Source: Candidatus Aenigmatarchaeota archaeon
GTDB lineage: Archaea; Aenigmatarchaeota; Aenigmatarchaeia; GW2011-AR5; JACRAC01
Assembly (NCBI GenBank): GCA_016187395.1
Contig: JACPJV010000009.1
Coordinates: 1 to 63,114, forward strand
Reading direction: 5' to 3'
DNA length: 63,114 nucleotides
Position numbers and translations under genes: made by a program. Of this stretch, positions 50,431 to 59,214 are shown one piece after another. A model generated the notes under the pieces. The model worked only from the letters and a program-made list of their open reading frames with translations, ran no database searches and was not told where the DNA came from. Each line of letters begins with the position of its first letter. Within the stretch, counting starts at the first letter, position 1.

Positions 50431-50506
50431 AATGCTATTTGAACCTGCAAGCTTAAATAACTATCTTTATAAGATATATCTGATAATAATACAGTAGGTG
50501 GTGAAA

Positions 50507-52813
50507 ATGGCCGAAGATAAAAACCATGTGGAAGAGGAGACGATAGGAATCAGGGGCATGCACTGCGCGTCCTGTGTTCTGAAAATAGAGAAGGCGCTCA
50601 AGAAGCAAAGCGGCGTAAAGGATGCGAGCGTAAACCTGCCGATGGAGACGGCTTATGTGAAATATGATACTGAAAAAACAGATTTAGAAAGGATAAAGGA
50701 GGCGGTGAGGAAGCTCGGTTACAAAGTTGAAGAAGAGCATACAATGCGCAATGATATGGACAGCCACGAAAATCATGAAGACGGCAAGCACGAGCATGAC
50801 ACTGCTGAAGGCCTGAAAAGAAAATTTTATGTTGGTGCCATTCTCAGCGCGATAATCTTCCTCGGAAGCTTTCCTGAGCTGTTTCCGTTTGCAGGTATCC
50901 TTGGCAACCCTGTTCTGCTGCTGATACTCGTCATACCAGTGCAGTTCTGGGTGGGCTGGCAGTTTTACGCGGGCGCGTGGGCTGCGGCAAGGGCAAAAAC
51001 AACAGATATGAACACCCTAATTGCCGTAGGCACTTCAGCGGCATTCTTCTACAGCGCTGCTGTTGTTCTGTTTCCGGAATTCCTTGGCTCGCAGGGAGCG
51101 CTGTACTTTGACACGGCAGCCGTGATAGTGACACTCATCATATTAGGCAGATATCTTGAGGCAATAACAAAGGGACGCGCATCAGAGGCGATAAAGAAGC
51201 TGATGGGGTTGCAGGCAAAGACAGCAATAGTAATCAGGGACGGAAAGGAAGTGGAAATTAACCTGGACGATGTAGTTGCTGGCGATATCATAATCGTGAA
51301 GCCCGGGGGGAAAATACCTGTAGACGGAATTGTCATAGGTGGCTCTTCGACGGTGGACGAGAGCATGATAACAGGCGAATCTATTCCTGTAGAAAAAAGA
51401 AAGGGTTCGCAGGCGATAGGAGCAACGATAAACAAGCACGGCCTGCTGAAAATCAGGGCGACAAAGGTCGGGAAAGAGATGATGCTGTCGCAGATAATAA
51501 AGTTGGTCGAAGGCGCGCTAGGCTCAAAGGCGCCGCTCCAGAGGCTGGCCGACAAGGTATCTTCGTATTTTGTGCCGGCTGTTATTCTTATTGCATTAGC
51601 ATCCTTTGCGGTATGGTATGCTGCGGGCGCTATGATACTTGCAGGAAGCCCGTTTCTTTCAGGATTAGCATCAGGGCCATTCCTGTTTTCCTTTGTGATA
51701 CTCATCTCAATACTCATCGTGGCATGCCCGTGCGCGCTCGGCCTTGCCACGCCTACGGCAATAATGATGGGAACAGGGCTTGGAGCGAAAAATGGAATAC
51801 TTATCAAAGGCGCGGAGCATCTGGAAATGGCGCACAAGATTGACGCAGTAATTTTTGACAAGACAGGCACTCTTACAAAAGGCGAGCCGGAAGTAACGGA
51901 TATCATCTCTGCCGGGAAGATGAAGAAAAAAGATATTCTTAGGATAGCTGCGATAGTGGAAAAGGGTTCAGAGCACGCGCTTGGCGAGGCTATAATAAAT
52001 GAGGCAAAGAAGCTGAAAATGCATATTCCTGATGCGAGGAACTTCAAGGCAATAACAGGGAAGGGCGTTTCTGCGACATACAAGGGAAAGAAAATCCTGC
52101 TAGGCAACAGGTCTCTGATGAAGGAAAACAAGATTGCTGCTGACAAATTTGAGCAGCAGCTTCAAAAACTGGAAAACGAGGGGAAAACAGCGATGCTGGT
52201 GGCTTATGGAAAAGAAGTCATAGGAATAATAGCTGTCGCAGATACGCTGAAGGAAAATTCAGCAGAAGCTGTAAAACAACTGCATAAAATGGGCAAGAAG
52301 GTTATAATGATAACAGGTGACAACGAGCGGACAGCGAAGGCGGTAGCAAAAAAGGTCGGGATAGACGATGTGCTTGCAGAGGTGTTGCCTGGCGACAAGG
52401 CATTGGAGATTAAAAAACTGCAGAAAAAAGGCCACAAAGTCGCGATGGTTGGTGATGGAATTAATGATTCGCCTGCGCTTGCGCAGGCAGACCTTGGGAT
52501 AGCAATAGGATCCGGAACTGACATAGCTTTGGAAACAGGAGGCATAGTACTGATAAAGGATGATTTGCGCGACGTTGTTACTTCCATTGACATAAGCCGC
52601 TACACGGTCAGGAAGATAAGACAGAATCTCTTTTGGGCTTTTATCTACAACATAGCTGCCATCCCGATTGCAGCTGGCGTGCTTTATCCCTTTATAGGCT
52701 TTTTGCTCAACCCTATGATTGCGGCAGGCGCGATGGCTTTTTCATCAGTATCTGTTGTAGGGAATTCGCTGCTGATGAAGAGGTACAGGACGAGGATGAA
52801 AGGAAAAAAGTAA
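50507..52813 (+). CDS. copA: copper-translocating P1B-type ATPase
   Basis: [11 protein letters not shown] domain, CPC in [19 protein letters not shown], and [10 protein letters not shown]. Confidence 0.95.
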
Positions 52814-53368: not shown

Positions 53369-53986
53369 ATGAGCGACAACAAGAGCATGGCAGCTATGAC
53401 ACTGGTCATAGTGGCTGTGGCAATCATGGCATTCAACCAGTATACCTTGATGTCCATAAACGGAGGCACAGCTGCAATAACAGGAAACGTCGTGGCTGAG
53501 CAGCAGAACGCAGCCACGCTGCAGGAGGCGATAGACGCGGTCATTCCGAGAGGTGTGCCTGCTGTCTACGGCGAGGAGCTCGGGGTGAGCTTTGACAAGC
53601 CGCAGGAGTCGCTGAACATACTTGCGAATCTGGACGGCGACCTTTATGACAACGGCAAGCTGCACTTCGCTGATTTGACGGCAGAGCAGCAGGAGAGCTA
53701 CAAGCAGATAGGCGCGTCGATTGCATGCGAGTATTGCTGCGGAGCAACCACGCTGATCTTCAGCAACGGCCAGCCTGCGTGCGGGTGCGCGCACTCGGCA
53801 GGCATGAGAGGGCTTGCAATGTATTTGCTCATAAACAATCCAGAAATGAGCAACGAGCAGATTTTGGATGAGCTAACAGACTGGAAGGCGCTGTTCTTCC
53901 CCAAGGAGATGGTTGCCAAATACATGCAGCAGAACGGGCTGACGCAGGGCGCGGCAGAGCTTCCGGATATGGTAGGAGGGTGCTAA
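53369..53986 (+). CDS. single-pass protein with CCG / P-x-CGC Cys cluster and C-terminal MVGGC
   Basis: N-terminal TM. CEYCCGATT...QPACGCAHSAGMRG resembles the PCYCGC-motif family. It ends in LPDMVGGC*. Confidence 0.6.
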   Translation: MSDNKSMAAMTLVIVAVAIMAFNQYTLMSINGGTAAITGNVVAEQQNAATLQEAIDAVIPRGVPAVYGEELGVSFDKPQESLNILANLDGDLYDNGKLHFADLTAEQQESYKQIGASIACEYCCGATTLIFSNGQPACGCAHSAGMRGLAMYLLINNPEMSNEQILDELTDWKALFFPKEMVAKYMQQNGLTQGAAELPDMVGGC

Positions 53987-54008
53987 GCGAATCGTGAGGT
54001 TGATTTCA

Positions 54009-54278
54009 ATGGCAAGAAAAACAGAGGATGAAGAAAATTTAGAAGATGACAGCAAAACCGGGTGGCATGCAAGCAGACAAAGAGAAAGCAGCGTAAGCAC
54101 GGTTCTGATTGTGCTGCTGGCTGTGCTGGTGCTATTCTCTGCAGCGCAGGCTGTGCAATTGGCAGAGATAAGGAGCGAAGGGTTGCCTTTGACAGGAAAC
54201 GTTGCAGCGCCGCAGCAGCAGGCGCAAGTGCCACAAAGCCTGCAGAATGATCTCCCTGAAATGCAGGGTGGTTGCTGA
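54009..54278 (+). CDS. single-pass mini-protein ending in MQGGC
   Basis: GTGAGGTGA SD lies 5 nt before ATG 54009. TM, then LTGNVAAPQQQ, ending in LPEMQGGC*. This resembles the head and tail of 53369..53986. Confidence 0.5.
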   Translation: MARKTEDEENLEDDSKTGWHASRQRESSVSTVLIVLLAVLVLFSAAQAVQLAEIRSEGLPLTGNVAAPQQQAQVPQSLQNDLPEMQGGC

Positions 54279-55476: not shown

Positions 55477-55523
55477 CAAGGCTCTGAAAGATGCATTAGC
55501 CTGCTGCTTTGAGGAGTGAGAAT

Positions 55524-55913
55524 ATGAAAGGAATCTATATTGCGGTTGTCGTGTTTGCAATTGTGGTTGTAGGGGCAGTTTTGGCAATATCAGCAGCACC
55601 ATCAGAAGGCATAAGGCTTCCTTATTATGCAACAAGCCAGCCGATGACAAAGGAGGCTTATATGTTCGCTGTCGAGAATCCGGAACAGCTGAATGGAATA
55701 AATTGTTACTGCGGCTGCATGCAGCATTCGCACAGCGGTCGCATCCATAGCCGTGGTCTATTAGACTGCTTCATGAAGGAAGACGGTTCATTTGAAAAAC
55801 ATGCAAGCGAGTGCGACATGTGTCTTAATGATGCATTGGCAGTGAAGCAGATGAGCCTTGATGGAGTGCAGAAAGATGAAATAAAAGCCGCGATTGATGA
55901 TAAGTATAGGTGA
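55524..55913 (+). CDS. PCYCGC-motif family single-pass protein
   Basis: GAGGAGTGA SD. TM, then NCYCGCMQHSHSG...LLDCF...HASECDMC. Confidence 0.6.
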   Translation: MKGIYIAVVVFAIVVVGAVLAISAAPSEGIRLPYYATSQPMTKEAYMFAVENPEQLNGINCYCGCMQHSHSGRIHSRGLLDCFMKEDGSFEKHASECDMCLNDALAVKQMSLDGVQKDEIKAAIDDKYR

Positions 55914-55918
55914 ATGCA

Positions 55919-56161
55919 ATGAGCGAAAAAATAAAACCGAAGGCGCTGGCGCTGACCTTCGCCACAGCAGCCTTTATCCTTGATGTGGCGGGCTATGTGT
56001 GGCACGGACTGCTTGGACAGCCATCTTTTATGAATGATCTCTACCCGGGATTCTGGGGCGACCCTGTGCTCCTGCTCTGGGGATTGGCAGGCACGCTGGC
56101 AGGCGCTTATGTGCTCGGCTACATATTCGCCTGGGTTTACAACTGGGCGGAAAAGAGGTGA
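55919..56161 (+). CDS. small two-TM membrane protein
   Basis: AGGTGA SD lies 5 nt before the ATG. 80 aa. Confidence 0.5.
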   Translation: MSEKIKPKALALTFATAAFILDVAGYVWHGLLGQPSFMNDLYPGFWGDPVLLLWGLAGTLAGAYVLGYIFAWVYNWAEKR

Positions 56162-56165
56162 TTAG

Positions 56166-56525
56166 ATGAAGGGAAGAAAGGGCAAGAAATCCGGGGCAGC
56201 ATTAGGAATAGCGTTGACACTGGTTGCTGCAGTTTTGGTTTTGGCAGCATCTATTTCCTTTGCACACGGAAGTTCAGAAAACAGCAGTACAATGAATCAT
56301 GGAATGACAGGCGTTCAGTCTGGAAGCATGATGCAGGCGCATGCAATGATGGGCGGACATACGAGCAGCATGATGAATCATATGAGCATGGTGCAGGATC
56401 ATCATGATGGCACTGCAGAAGAAGGTATAGAAAACATGATAAAACACATGGATGAGGACGGCGACGGAGAATGCGATTTTTGCAAAATGTCCGTAGATGC
56501 ATGCAAAAGGATGATGAGCGAATGA
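56166..56525 (+). CDS. secreted Met/His-rich protein (Cu(I)-binding-like)
   Basis: Signal/TM, then MNHGMTGVQSGSMMQAHAMMGGHTSSMMNHMSMVQDHHDG and the C-terminal CDFCKMSVDAC. Confidence 0.6.
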   Translation: MKGRKGKKSGAALGIALTLVAAVLVLAASISFAHGSSENSSTMNHGMTGVQSGSMMQAHAMMGGHTSSMMNHMSMVQDHHDGTAEEGIENMIKHMDEDGDGECDFCKMSVDACKRMMSE

Positions 56526-56534
56526 ATGCACGTT

Positions 56535-56600
56535 TGTGAGCAGGAGCAAAGCTCCTGCTACACAGCAAGAGCTTCGCTCTTGCTTGTGCCGCAGCACAAG
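56535..56600. repeat. triple-hairpin repeat module inside the operon
   Basis: TGTGAGCAGGAGC aaa GCTCCTGCT(A)CACA, GCAAGAGC ttcg CTCTTGC and TTGTGC cgca GCACAA. Same stem types as the other loci. Confidence 0.55.
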
Positions 56601-56614
56601 CGTGGGGTTTGATC

Positions 56615-57115
56615 ATGATTAGCAAGAACGGTAATAGTGCAAAGAGGGCAGGAACTGCAGGAGCCACGGCAGGCGGACTTGGCTTCAGTTTTGCGACGTG
56701 CCACAGCGTATGCCAGGCATTGTTGTCCGTGTTCGCTATAGCAGGCATTACCTTGCTGGGAATGCCCCTTGCATTCCTGGAACCGTACAGCGTGCCGCTG
56801 CTGATTCTTGCTGCCATATCAATCGGGATAAGTGTGTGGATGTGCAAAAGGCATCATCTGCCCCTGCGCACGCTGCTCAAGCCTTTTGGAATAGGGCTTC
56901 TGGCTGCGTTGGTGATAGTGCTGTCAGTCTTCAGCTTCACCGTGCTAGCTACTGGCGAGATTGGCGCAAGCGCAGATGCGAATGCTGCGGCAGGCGGCGC
57001 GGGAACCAGCCAGTTTCCTGACAAGTGCGCTGTGCCGGAAGGCTACACAGAAGAGGAATGGATTCAGCACATGGGGCATCATCCTGATTTGTATGCGGAA
57101 TGCCTGGGTGGATAA
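56615..57115 (+). CDS. polytopic membrane protein with CHSVC motif
   Basis: A Gly-rich segment then FATCHSVCQALL in the first TM. C-terminal tail CAVPEGYTEEEWIQHMGHHPDLYAEC. Confidence 0.55.
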   Translation: MISKNGNSAKRAGTAGATAGGLGFSFATCHSVCQALLSVFAIAGITLLGMPLAFLEPYSVPLLILAAISIGISVWMCKRHHLPLRTLLKPFGIGLLAALVIVLSVFSFTVLATGEIGASADANAAAGGAGTSQFPDKCAVPEGYTEEEWIQHMGHHPDLYAECLGG

Positions 57116-57116
57116 G

Positions 57117-57206
57117 ATGACAAAAGATTCCATAAGATATACATGCAGCTGCGACTGCAGGATTTCAAGGAAAGAATGTTCATGCAGGAACATCGAATCT
57201 TGCTGA
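57117..57206 (+). CDS. 29-aa Cys-rich micropeptide
   Basis: GGGTGGA lies 4 nt before the ATG, which is 1 nt after the upstream stop. Sequence MTKDSIRYTCSCDCRISRKECSCRNIESC*. Confidence 0.4.
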   Translation: MTKDSIRYTCSCDCRISRKECSCRNIESC

Positions 57207-57223
57207 AGATTGGGGGTGATATC

Positions 57224-57265
57224 ATGAAGAAAAAACAAAAGAAAAAGCAGCATGGATGCTGCTAG
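57224..57265 (+). CDS. 13-aa Lys-rich micropeptide ending in GCC
   Basis: GGGGGTGA lies 4 nt before the ATG. Sequence MKKKQKKKQHGCC*. Confidence 0.3.
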   Translation: MKKKQKKKQHGCC

Positions 57266-57276
57266 GAGGTTTCAAC

Positions 57277-57750
57277 CTACACCCTGGCGTAAGTTGAACT
57301 TCTTGCCCCTTTTGCTGGAGCGCTCGCTCCTGTCAGGTCCAAAAATTTCCTGCGAAGCCTCTGAATAGCAGGATCTCTGCTGCTTGCTCTTGCGTATGGC
57401 GGGGCGCGGAAGGCAAGCGTACCATCCTCTAAGCATGGAACAATCTGCATAATTTCACCCTGCGTATCCAGCAAATATCTGCGGAAAGGCGTCTGCAAGA
57501 TCGGGCGCAGGTCTTCCCTTCCGTTCGAATGTCTAAGAAATCTGGCTAGATAAAATCCATCTGATGCGAAAGGTGTTCGCGTATATACAAATGCCACATC
57601 AACTCTTCTTCCACCCATTGAGGTGCCTTCTGCAACCACGATGTATCCAGGCTCACAATTTGGCAAATCTTCAAGAAGGTCGCCGGGAATAACAAGAGTA
57701 TTCTCGTTCACGCCATGGTTTGAAGCATGACCTACAGCTCTATCCCTCAT
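57277..57750 (-). CDS. hypothetical protein
   Basis: ATG 57750 lies ~25 nt downstream of a CTTTAAATAT box (57771-57780, minus strand). The track ORF starts at TTG 57765. Confidence 0.45.
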   Translation of the reverse strand: MRDRAVGHASNHGVNENTLVIPGDLLEDLPNCEPGYIVVAEGTSMGGRRVDVAFVYTRTPFASDGFYLARFLRHSNGREDLRPILQTPFRRYLLDTQGEIMQIVPCLEDGTLAFRAPPYARASSRDPAIQRLRRKFLDLTGASAPAKGARSSTYARV

Positions 57751-57786
57751 GTCTGAACAATGCAAGGAAAATATTTAAAGGAAAAA

Positions 57787-59214
57787 TCATACCGGTATTT
57801 TTACCGCTTTCTTCTGGGATGTTTCTTTCTTTGGTTCTCCAAAGACCTTCACGCTTTTGATATTGACGAATTCTAACAGTCCATAGCGCGAAAGCTCGCG
57901 GCCGTAGCCGCTTTTTTTAATACCACCGAAAGGCATTCGAGGATCTGATCGTGGAGTGCCATTCACAAAAACAACGCCTGCCTCTATGCGTTTCGCAAGC
58001 TTTTCACCTTTCTTCACATCTGAGGTCCAGATGCTTGCGCCAAGCCCGTAGTCTGTTTTATTAGATATGCTTACTGAGTTGCGGTCGGTTTTTGCCGGTA
58101 TTATTGCTGCGACAGGCCCGAAAACCTCCTCGTTGAAAAGACGCATGCCTCTTTTGACATTTGTGATGGCAGTTGGCTCGTAGAAGAAGCCGTTGCCTTC
58201 CATGCGCCGACCGCCTAAAAGCAATTTAGCCCCCTTGCTTAGCGCGTCAGCAACTTGCTCTTCCAGCCCCTGTCTTTGTTCTTCCCTGACAAGAGGGCCT
58301 ACCTGCGTTGCCGGATCCATAGGATCGCCAACTTTATATTTTCTCATATTTTCCGCAAAAAGCTGCTCAAATTCCTGCAGGCGATTTTCCACAACAATGA
58401 ATCTTTTAGCAGCTATGCAGCTTTGCCCTGTGTTATGAAGACGTCCTTTGGCTGCAGCTTCACACGCCTTTTGCATATCCGCGTCAGACAAAACAATGAA
58501 CGGATCGCTGCCGCCTAATTCCAGAACGCATTTTTTCAGGTATTTTCCTGCTGTTTTCGCTATGTCTATCCCTGCTTCTACGCTTCCTGTTAATGAAACG
58601 GCATTAACATACCTTGATCTTATCAGCGCATGCACGGTTGCATGATCAGTGATTATAGAGCGAAAGGTGCTTTCAGGAAATCCTGCCTCGACAAAACACT
58701 GTTCTATTGCAAGGGCACATTGAGGCACAATGTTAGAGTGGCGGAGTATAACACAATTCCCAGCTGCAAGGGCAGGCACGGCACAGCGGAATGCCTGTGA
58801 GAAGGGATAATTCCAGGGCATTATCGCAAGTATGGTTCCTAAAGGTTCGAATGCAATATAGCTTTTTGTTGCATCTGTCTGGACGATTTCAGGCTTAAGA
58901 AAATTCTCTGAATTGTCAGCGTAATATTCGCAGATAAGGACGCATTTTTCTATTTCTGACTCTGCTTCCGCAACAGGCTTTCCCATCTCTGTCGTAATCA
59001 GGCGTGCGTAGGATTGCTTATTCTTTCGCAGAACATTCGCAAGCTTTCTCAGAAAGGATGCCCTTTCCTTTACCTTAATGCGCCTCCATTTCCTGAATGC
59101 CCTCCTCACTTCCTTGGCTACCGCCTTGGCTTCTTTCACAGCTTCTGAACCGCTTATTGCCTCGAACTCGCGGTTTACCTGTTCGGTGGCAGGATTGATG
59201 GACTGGATATTCAT
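57787..59214 (-). CDS. NAD(P)-dependent (succinate-)semialdehyde dehydrogenase family
   Basis: MPWNYPF, LELGGSDPFIV and HNTGQSCIAAKR catalytic-Cys context. Confidence 0.88.
   Translation of the reverse strand: MNIQSINPATEQVNREFEAISGSEAVKEAKAVAKEVRRAFRKWRRIKVKERASFLRKLANVLRKNKQSYARLITTEMGKPVAEAESEIEKCVLICEYYADNSENFLKPEIVQTDATKSYIAFEPLGTILAIMPWNYPFSQAFRCAVPALAAGNCVILRHSNIVPQCALAIEQCFVEAGFPESTFRSIITDHATVHALIRSRYVNAVSLTGSVEAGIDIAKTAGKYLKKCVLELGGSDPFIVLSDADMQKACEAAAKGRLHNTGQSCIAAKRFIVVENRLQEFEQLFAENMRKYKVGDPMDPATQVGPLVREEQRQGLEEQVADALSKGAKLLLGGRRMEGNGFFYEPTAITNVKRGMRLFNEEVFGPVAAIIPAKTDRNSVSISNKTDYGLGASIWTSDVKKGEKLAKRIEAGVVFVNGTPRSDPRMPFGGIKKSGYGRELSRYGLLEFVNIKSVKVFGEPKKETSQKKAVKIPV

Follow-up and report, generated by a model that had tools for sequence, protein, structure and literature searches.

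The window, that is, the whole stretch of 63,114 nucleotides analyzed here, is contig 4 of a 0.98-Mb uncultured genome bin from a DPANN archaeon (42 contigs, 80% complete). Its plus strand carries an operon that opens with the gene for a CopA-type copper P-type ATPase (Table 1). Downstream of CopA are encoded a winged-helix protein tethered to the membrane and a pair of membrane proteins with Gly-Gly-Cys C-termini (53369–54278), followed by a PCYCGC-family protein, an 83-aa membrane protein, a His/Met-rich protein, a 168-aa membrane protein, and two very short frames, ORF A and ORF B. A 41-codon Cys-rich frame also lies in this operon; it belongs to no Pfam family, and its comparison with ORF A showed no significant similarity (E = 0.22). 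The nearest protein relatives show 78% and 61% identity. A metagenome scan with a single protein query found nothing, and a scan with an alignment query returned 80 loci, the nearest at 62% identity. The 168-aa protein is intact in closer relatives, and in many other members of the order its two modules are separate, adjacent genes. The C-terminal module, of ∼70 residues (Asp-Lys-Cys…His-His-Pro-Asp…Glu-Cys), is widespread in DPANN archaea and also occurs in CPR bacteria.

An earlier note on this DNA had described ORF A and ORF B as two micro-ORFs of 29 and 13 codons, each preceded by a correctly spaced Shine-Dalgarno (SD) sequence. Inspection of the sequence and re-derivation by script confirmed both lengths, the ATG codons at 57117 and 57224, and the SD spacings; in the mechanical ORF list, both frames are buried within longer TTG- or ATG-started frames. 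The peptide encoded by ORF B, re-derived by script, is MKKKQKKKQHGCC, in which 6 of the 13 codons specify Lys. Its ATG is preceded by GGGGGTGA at 57212–57219 and then by the four nucleotides TATC. ORF A begins 1 nt past the stop codon of the 168-aa gene and ends 17 nt before the start of ORF B. There is no run of five or more T between the 168-aa gene and ORF B, and a hairpin lies 3′ of ORF B.

Table 1. Coordinates of the features in the window and, where a locus code is given, in related loci.
Feature	Coordinates	Strand	Description
CopA-type copper P-type ATPase	50498–52813	+	N-terminal HMA domain; first gene of the operon, anchor of the cluster
Cys-rich frame of 41 codons	54337–54462	+	
168-aa membrane protein	56609–57115	+	N-terminal Cys-His-x-x-Cys membrane module and C-terminal Cys…His-His-Pro…Cys module; stop TAA 57113–57115
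GGGTGGA, possible weak ribosome site for ORF A	57106–57112	+	Within the last codons of the upstream gene; GGTG only
ORF A, 29-codon frame	57117–57206	+	Six Cys; C-x-C-x-C and C-x-C; stop TGA 57204–57206
SD-type site of ORF B, GGGGGTGAT	57212–57220	+	GGTGA 4 nt before the ORF B start
ORF B, 13-codon micro-gene	57224–57265	+	Lys-rich head, His-Gly-Cys-Cys end; stop TAG 57263–57265
Antisense of ORF B	57226–57263	−	7-bp hairpin (57263–57246), then long T-rich run; terminator-like for convergent transcription
12-bp hairpin	57271–57298	both	Just 3′ of ORF B; foldable on either strand
TTG-started frame of 162 codons	57277–57765	−	Between ORF B and aldehyde dehydrogenase (57787–59214)
Cys-block gene, ∼43–44 codons	L054 7336–7470	+	
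Cys-block gene, ∼43–44 codons	L014 1224–1358	−	
Cys-block gene, ∼43–44 codons	L062 2454–2588	−	
Cys-block gene, ∼43–44 codons	L065 1380–1514	−	
Cys-block gene, ∼43–44 codons	L078 4064–4195	−	
Cys-block gene, ∼43–44 codons	L099 12929–13057	+	
Cys-head/Lys-tail frame of 18 codons	L100 716–772	+	GGGGTGA site
Lys/Glu-rich frame of 37 codons	L078 10080–10193	+	Three Cys-Cys pairs; ribosome site
YHS mini-frame	G025:C9:148403–148531	−	Between a family micro-gene and YHS-headed CopA

A family of Lys-rich micro-genes ending in Cys-Cys

ORF B belongs to a family of micro-genes, the first sign of which was a 17-codon frame of the same build with a strong ribosome site, ∼105 nt after a homologue of the C-terminal module (L007); in L070, too, the C-module gene has a family micro-gene ∼105 nt behind it. 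The family as assembled, partly with a pattern that presupposes its build and from relatives that are non-independent samples, comprises 27 instances (ORF B and 26 others) with 24 distinct peptides and lengths of 10–28 codons. Its sources that were free of the pattern were the whole-genome scan together with the homologous loci, the contigs labelled Nanoarchaeota and Woesearchaeota and contig L096, the metagenome contigs, and the CopA loci. The common build consists of a GGTGA-type ribosome site, an ATG, a Lys-rich head, usually a Gly, and then Cys-Cys and the stop codon. GGTGA lies 4–5 nt 5′ of the ATG in 18 of the 27 members, and 25 have an SD 4-mer; as a background value, GGTGA was found at the same position in 34 of 525 long ORFs of the source genome. 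On average, the peptides consist of 41% Lys/Arg, 3% hydrophobic, and 4% acidic residues. A Gly directly precedes the Cys pair in 18 of the 27 members, and the Cys count per member is 2–4 (2 in ORF B).

The codon usage across the family is varied: Cys is encoded by TGC (43) and TGT (21), Lys by AAA (82) and AAG (62), every one of the four Gly codons occurs, and so does each of the three stop codons. This synonymous variation indicates that the peptide, rather than the DNA, has been conserved. At locus L059, two copies in one cluster encode an identical 11-residue peptide and differ at 4 bases, all of which are silent, and the flanks of the two copies are unrelated except for the ribosome site.

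The source genome was scanned on both strands (982 kb) for ATG-started frames of 8–40 codons with a Cys-Cys end and at least 40% Lys/Arg. Exactly one such frame was detected, ORF B itself, and the same script gave two more in ∼60 kb of homologous loci. In 70 genomes of the order, a degenerate DNA pattern gave ∼174 matches, about three times the ∼58 obtained in the reversed control, and many of these matches were in frame and on contigs that also carry homologues of the operon genes. The matches in L051, L052, L057, L066, L268, L269, and L069, which had no ATG or no ribosome site, were left out of the count. Verified members occur in at least 15 genomes of the order of the window (Aenigmatarchaeota), representing three families. 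Outside this order, members were found in two further genomes of the class, on contigs labelled Nanoarchaeota and Woesearchaeota, and on two metagenome contigs, and one member lies on a contig (L096) with the submitter label “uncultured Methanosarcinales archaeon.” No member was seen in the loci of CPR bacteria with a C-terminal module like that of the 168-aa protein.

The family matched no curated protein family in Pfam, for which frames of 28–40 residues were tested, and searches of Pfam and PDB with the 40-codon extended frame of ORF B and with a 28-codon family member gave no matches. Full-text literature searches found no publication on it. Genes of 10–20 codons escape standard annotation, and no family member was called in the protein collections searched. 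ORF B has all four features by which the family is recognized: the ribosome site (4–8 nt before the ATG), the length (10–28 codons) and composition (∼40% Lys/Arg), the Cys-Cys-stop end, and a place on the coding strand of a CopA/thiol-redox cluster. On this comparative evidence, we conclude that ORF B is a real, previously unannotated gene that is under selection for its peptide and linked to copper clusters. Selection has maintained the micro-gene in many ultra-small archaea, where it accompanies the genes for copper export.

Association with copper clusters

The link with copper export was examined in a sample drawn blind to the frame, consisting of the 29 best CopA loci of the order with 1.5 kb on either side (140 kb in total). 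Six of the 29 loci carry a family micro-gene, with seven frames in six genera, and the reversed controls gave none. Searches with the window proteins (tblastn) showed that the clusters with a micro-gene hold CopA, a PadR-type regulator, the 83-aa membrane protein, Gly-Gly-Cys-tailed proteins, and the modules of the 168-aa protein. The Pfam families found in the neighborhood include thioredoxin-fold proteins, AhpC/TSA, a DsbD-type membrane domain (DsbD_TM), DUF411, DUF302, and CopA headed by either HMA or YHS. In every copper locus examined, the micro-gene is read from the coding strand of the cluster, but where it stands among the other genes varies. It lies between the 83-aa membrane protein and CopA in five loci; elsewhere it separates the two Gly-Gly-Cys-tailed genes, precedes the larger one, or comes after the His/Met-rich protein, and it is the last gene of the cluster in the window and in L070. 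In six loci, the stop codon of the micro-gene shares bases with the start codon that follows (TGATG or TAATG). Outside copper clusters, family-like frames were found in L067 and L068, beside a radical-SAM gene and an Ile-tRNA ligase gene. The nearest inspected relative of the gene upstream of ORF A (L155, 62% identity) has neither ORF A nor ORF B.

These arrangements bear on the question of whether ORF B acts in cis, such that translation itself matters, through coupling or re-initiation or as a nascent peptide that senses metal or cysteine, and the released peptide has no role. The six stop/start overlaps and the five micro-genes placed upstream of CopA are consistent with such a role. In mycobacteria, runs of Cys codons in short leader ORFs act as cysteine-responsive attenuators; these polycysteine ORFs are leaderless first cistrons before cysteine-metabolism genes (10.1101/834739). 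They resemble ORF B in being very short, in their consecutive Cys codons, and in lying within operons, but ORF B has an SD sequence and a Lys-rich head, is the last frame before a convergent unit, and belongs to a copper cluster, and the position of the family is variable and often terminal. To our knowledge, moreover, leader-peptide attenuation of this kind has not been established in archaea. The downstream partner differs by locus (CopA, a Gly-Gly-Cys-tailed protein, a DUF411 protein, or a membrane protein), and in the window, L070, and L067/L068, the micro-gene has nothing after it on its own strand; a T-rich stretch lies downstream of it in L063. A partner that varies and is sometimes absent makes a cis role less likely, and the conserved peptide amid unrelated flanks in L059 fits a released product better. 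We therefore regard action in cis as unlikely, and favor a released peptide as the product of ORF B.

The strand opposite ORF B raises a different possibility, namely that ORF B is a chance frame and that its A-rich stretch is the antisense of a T-rich hairpin terminator serving a convergent minus-strand unit. The minus strand does carry a 7-bp hairpin followed by a long T-rich run, and its fold over 57105–57300 gave z = −3.1 (the plus-strand fold, at z = −1.5, was not significant). However, in most relatives the micro-gene sits between genes of the same strand, where no convergent terminator is needed, and the family keeps its start, ribosome site, frame, and Cys-Cys-stop while its codons vary synonymously. 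A nearby gene end to terminate is also uncertain, because the minus-strand ORF at 57277–57765 has no relative among 5.8 billion proteins. A reading of ORF B as a terminator only is thus largely refuted by its conservation between same-strand genes and by the CopA-locus sample, and we consider it highly improbable. The antisense terminator-like element is likely a by-product of the Lys codons of ORF B, which we take as a gene in its own right, and the 12-bp hairpin just beyond it likely ends transcripts from both directions, those of the plus-strand operon and those of the minus-strand unit.

Two observations concern the surrounding sequence. The only Rfam match in 55500–58500 was CsrC, at 17 bits against a threshold of 61; it lies at 56327–56589, outside both ORFs. 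For the minus-strand frame between ORF B and the aldehyde dehydrogenase gene, comparison with 5.8 billion proteins, with Pfam, and by tblastx with 1.9 Mb of related loci gave no match. This segment is an orphan gene or else ∼520 nt of non-coding DNA specific to the lineage.

The Cys-rich frame ORF A

ORF A differs from the family in composition, with 21% Lys/Arg, a Ser-Cys end, and six scattered Cys residues, and it falls outside the Lys-rich/Cys-Cys group. Its Cys content (6 of 29 residues) and its motifs C-S-C-D-C and C-S-C are those of a metallothionein. All six TGY triplets of 57117–57206 are in frame. Of 20,000 shuffles of the 108-nt spacer that preserved its dinucleotides, one produced an ATG-started frame with ≥ 20 codons and ≥ 5 Cys. 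The peptide contains an internal repeat, C-S-C…R-I-S, written in differing codons (TGC AGC TGC and TGT TCA TGC; ATT TCA and ATC…TCT).

Comparative searches gave no relative of ORF A. No frame like it follows the homologous gene in any of the ∼20 inspected loci, including the nearest ones inspected (62% and 57% identity). When 69 genomes of the order were searched with the ORF A peptide, the lowest E value was 0.09, in unrelated contexts, and tblastx and blastn searches with 57100–57800 against 1.9 Mb of related loci gave no match. A scan of the related loci for Cys-rich small frames detected only a different, 44-codon family, and comparison of ORF A with Pfam and with PDB chains gave no match up to E = 10.

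ORF A, which is not conserved, is a Cys-rich peptide of recent, lineage-specific origin or else a frame due to chance. It might be a real metallothionein-like peptide of 29 residues and 6 Cys, recently arisen in this lineage, whose translation is coupled to the upstream stop codon and which adds thiolate buffering of metal; we regard this as possible, with the balance leaning somewhat against it. The in-frame placement of every TGY triplet, the rarity of a comparable frame in the shuffles, and the tight fit of the frame between the upstream stop and the start of ORF B all argue for it, and the differing codons of the repeat suggest repetition at the level of the peptide rather than of the DNA. 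C-x-C motifs are typical of small copper metallothioneins, and ORF A has them in the same style. On the other hand, neither the 69 genomes, the tblastx search, nor the small Cys-rich frames yielded a relative, and the frame is missing after the homologous gene at every locus inspected and has no Pfam or PDB counterpart. Furthermore, its Cys codons lie in short palindromes (CTGCAG, CAGCTG), which might point to an origin by slippage, its ribosome site is weak, and the frame was chosen post hoc from a 63-kb window. If ORF A is translated, it may at most carry ribosomes from the upstream stop codon to within 17 nt of the ORF B start.

The earlier note had taken both micro-ORFs as real, and had named comparison of the 3′ end of the operon across relatives as one check and a lack of conservation at syntenic loci as the outcome that would count against them. 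ORF B came through this comparison, with its build kept in many related copper clusters and with synonymous variation, and ORF A, for which no inspected locus held a relative, did not and is left unsupported by that same standard. The cue of an SD sequence with Cys codons was therefore right for ORF B and is unsupported for its neighbor. It had further been argued that three micro-ORFs with an SD sequence and many Cys in one operon are unlikely to arise by chance. Because ORF B is conserved and ORF A is not, this argument is not needed for the former and is not sufficient for the latter; the improbability of the stacked Cys codons under shuffling nevertheless keeps ORF A as a candidate despite its lack of relatives.

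Candidate roles of the ORF B peptide

The best explanation of these results is, in our view, that the ORF B peptide is a basic, Cys-Cys-ended handler of Cu(I) that would serve CopA and the membrane proteins of the cluster. Taken jointly with the translation of ORF B as the last cistron of the plus-strand copper/thiol operon, we hold this explanation to be about evenly poised between right and wrong. The first Met would probably be removed; the remaining peptide would be short and unstructured, its Lys-rich head strongly basic and its C-terminal Cys-Cys free. The product has no signal or membrane segment, from which we infer that it is cytoplasmic and free. A putative role of the basic head is to hold the peptide either to the inner face of the membrane, which is negatively charged, or to an acidic partner, and the flexible terminal dithiol, on its glycine hinge, could bind Cu(I) or another thiol-loving metal. 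Because two neighboring Cys are poor chelators of one Cu(I), clusters or partner ligands would be required for binding. The peptide might buffer the metal, or hand it to the exporter CopA and to the cysteine-motif membrane proteins of the cluster. Its metal binding, location, and hand-off are proposed here. If the ORF B peptide does handle Cu(I), it would be the smallest gene-encoded metal carrier described so far, and would point to a way in which organisms with genomes of ∼1 Mb replace glutathione and folded metallochaperones.

Small cytoplasmic products with cysteine thiolates are also encoded beside copA in systems with CopZ/Atx1-type chaperones (HMA fold, M-x-C-x-x-C) and in archaea with the TRASH/YHS-type CopM, and the position directly 5′ of copA is often taken by the micro-gene. 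Unlike ORF B, however, those chaperones are folded proteins of ∼50–70 residues with a spaced Cys pair; ORF B encodes 13 residues with no fold, adjacent terminal Cys residues, and a Lys-rich head, and is unrelated to them in sequence. ORF B is not itself a CopZ/HMA metallochaperone: the M-x-C-x-x-C motif is absent, and its 13 residues compare with ∼65 for the HMA fold. In the source genome (80% complete), no HMA domain was found outside CopA. Among the 70 genomes of the order, each clear HMA match lies inside a long frame, and the only short HMA frames were one of 92 aa that is broken by a stop codon (G047), one of 50 aa beside CopA (G043), and one of 71 aa below the threshold (G033). Gamma-Glu-Cys ligase was likewise not found in the source genome, at its 80% completeness. 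With neither a free-standing CopZ nor a glutathione-type pathway found in the organism, the peptide could act as a miniature gene-encoded thiol carrier. The argument from an empty chaperone niche is weak, however, given the free-standing mini-proteins of the YHS domain in this order. Frames of this kind, of 47–83 codons, occur in about ten of its genomes and are possible TRASH/YHS-type chaperones; one of them stands between a micro-gene and CopA (Table 1).

Very small metallothioneins, such as the mycobacterial MymT (PMC3841717) and the fungal copper metallothioneins of ∼25 residues, offer a second comparison. They too are short, Cys-bearing peptides that annotation is prone to miss, and they are tied to copper defense, with which they are induced. 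In Cys density and C-x-C motifs it is ORF A that resembles them, whereas metallothioneins wrap metal clusters with many Cys residues, ORF B has two Cys and is dominated by Lys, and ORF A shows no conservation. The C-terminal Cys-Cys of MerA and the Gly-Gly-Cys tails of the operon are similar to ORF B in form, each presenting a terminal thiol or dithiol on a flexible, glycine-rich end. The likeness to the upstream Gly-Gly-Cys-ending proteins had been pointed out earlier and is a fair resemblance: in several relatives the micro-gene directly adjoins genes for such proteins and is often translationally coupled to them, and the functional link is putative. Those Cys tails, however, are carried by large proteins, which in the operon are membrane-anchored and probably outward-facing, whereas ORF B would give a free peptide with no signal or membrane segment. 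ORF B is akin to the small thiol peptides of metal-resistance operons, with a putative function that would place the family next to CopZ/CopM chaperones and the smallest metallothioneins.

The end of the peptide also invites a comparison with lipidated proteins. In eukaryotic Rab proteins, the C-terminus is commonly a Cys-Cys pair preceded by glycines, and in K-Ras a lipidated Cys accompanies a polybasic tract. The basic head and the Gly-Gly-Cys-Cys-like end of the micro-gene product are close to both in form, and isoprenoid donors are abundant in archaea, so the peptide might be a lipidation or membrane-anchoring signal whose thiols carry an isoprenoid lipid instead of metal. The Rab and K-Ras signals, however, belong to GTPases whose tails prenyltransferases modify; ORF B has no GTPase attached, and neither of the protein prenyltransferase subunit families (PF00432 and PF01239) was found in the source genome (80% complete). 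In addition, no transferase-like gene recurs beside the micro-gene, and its steady link with copper and thiol-redox genes points to free thiols. A role in lipidation is consequently very unlikely in our estimation, and the handling of Cu(I) by free thiols is preferred.

A broader proposal is that the micro-genes of the ORF B type, together with mirror-image micro-genes that have a Cys-rich head and a Lys-rich tail, form a hidden class of ribosomally made low-molecular-weight thiols. Such peptides (≤ 20 residues) would be mobile Cu(I) carriers, held at the membrane by their basic tract, that feed CopA and the terminal-cysteine arm proteins of the same clusters in genome-reduced DPANN archaea without glutathione-type pathways and a free-standing CopZ. 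We put this forward tentatively, and consider it rather unlikely as it stands.

The related loci contain further small frames with Cys (Table 1). A separate conserved small gene has a strong ribosome site, and its product carries a dense block of Cys (Cys-Cys, Cys-Pro-x-Cys-Asp-Cys-Cys-x-Cys-x-Cys) ahead of a basic tail that resembles a helix. This gene matches no Pfam family, is absent from the source genome, and is found in copper-type clusters of Aenigmatarchaeota and on one Woesearchaeota contig. The Lys/Glu-rich frame with three Cys-Cys pairs lies in a copper-type locus of an uncultured archaeon. The 18-codon frame of L100 lies ∼170 nt upstream of a homologue of the C-terminal module, in a copper-type locus on a Woesearchaeota contig, and has a Cys-rich head (Cys…Cys-Cys) and a Lys-rich tail, the mirror image of the ORF B build.
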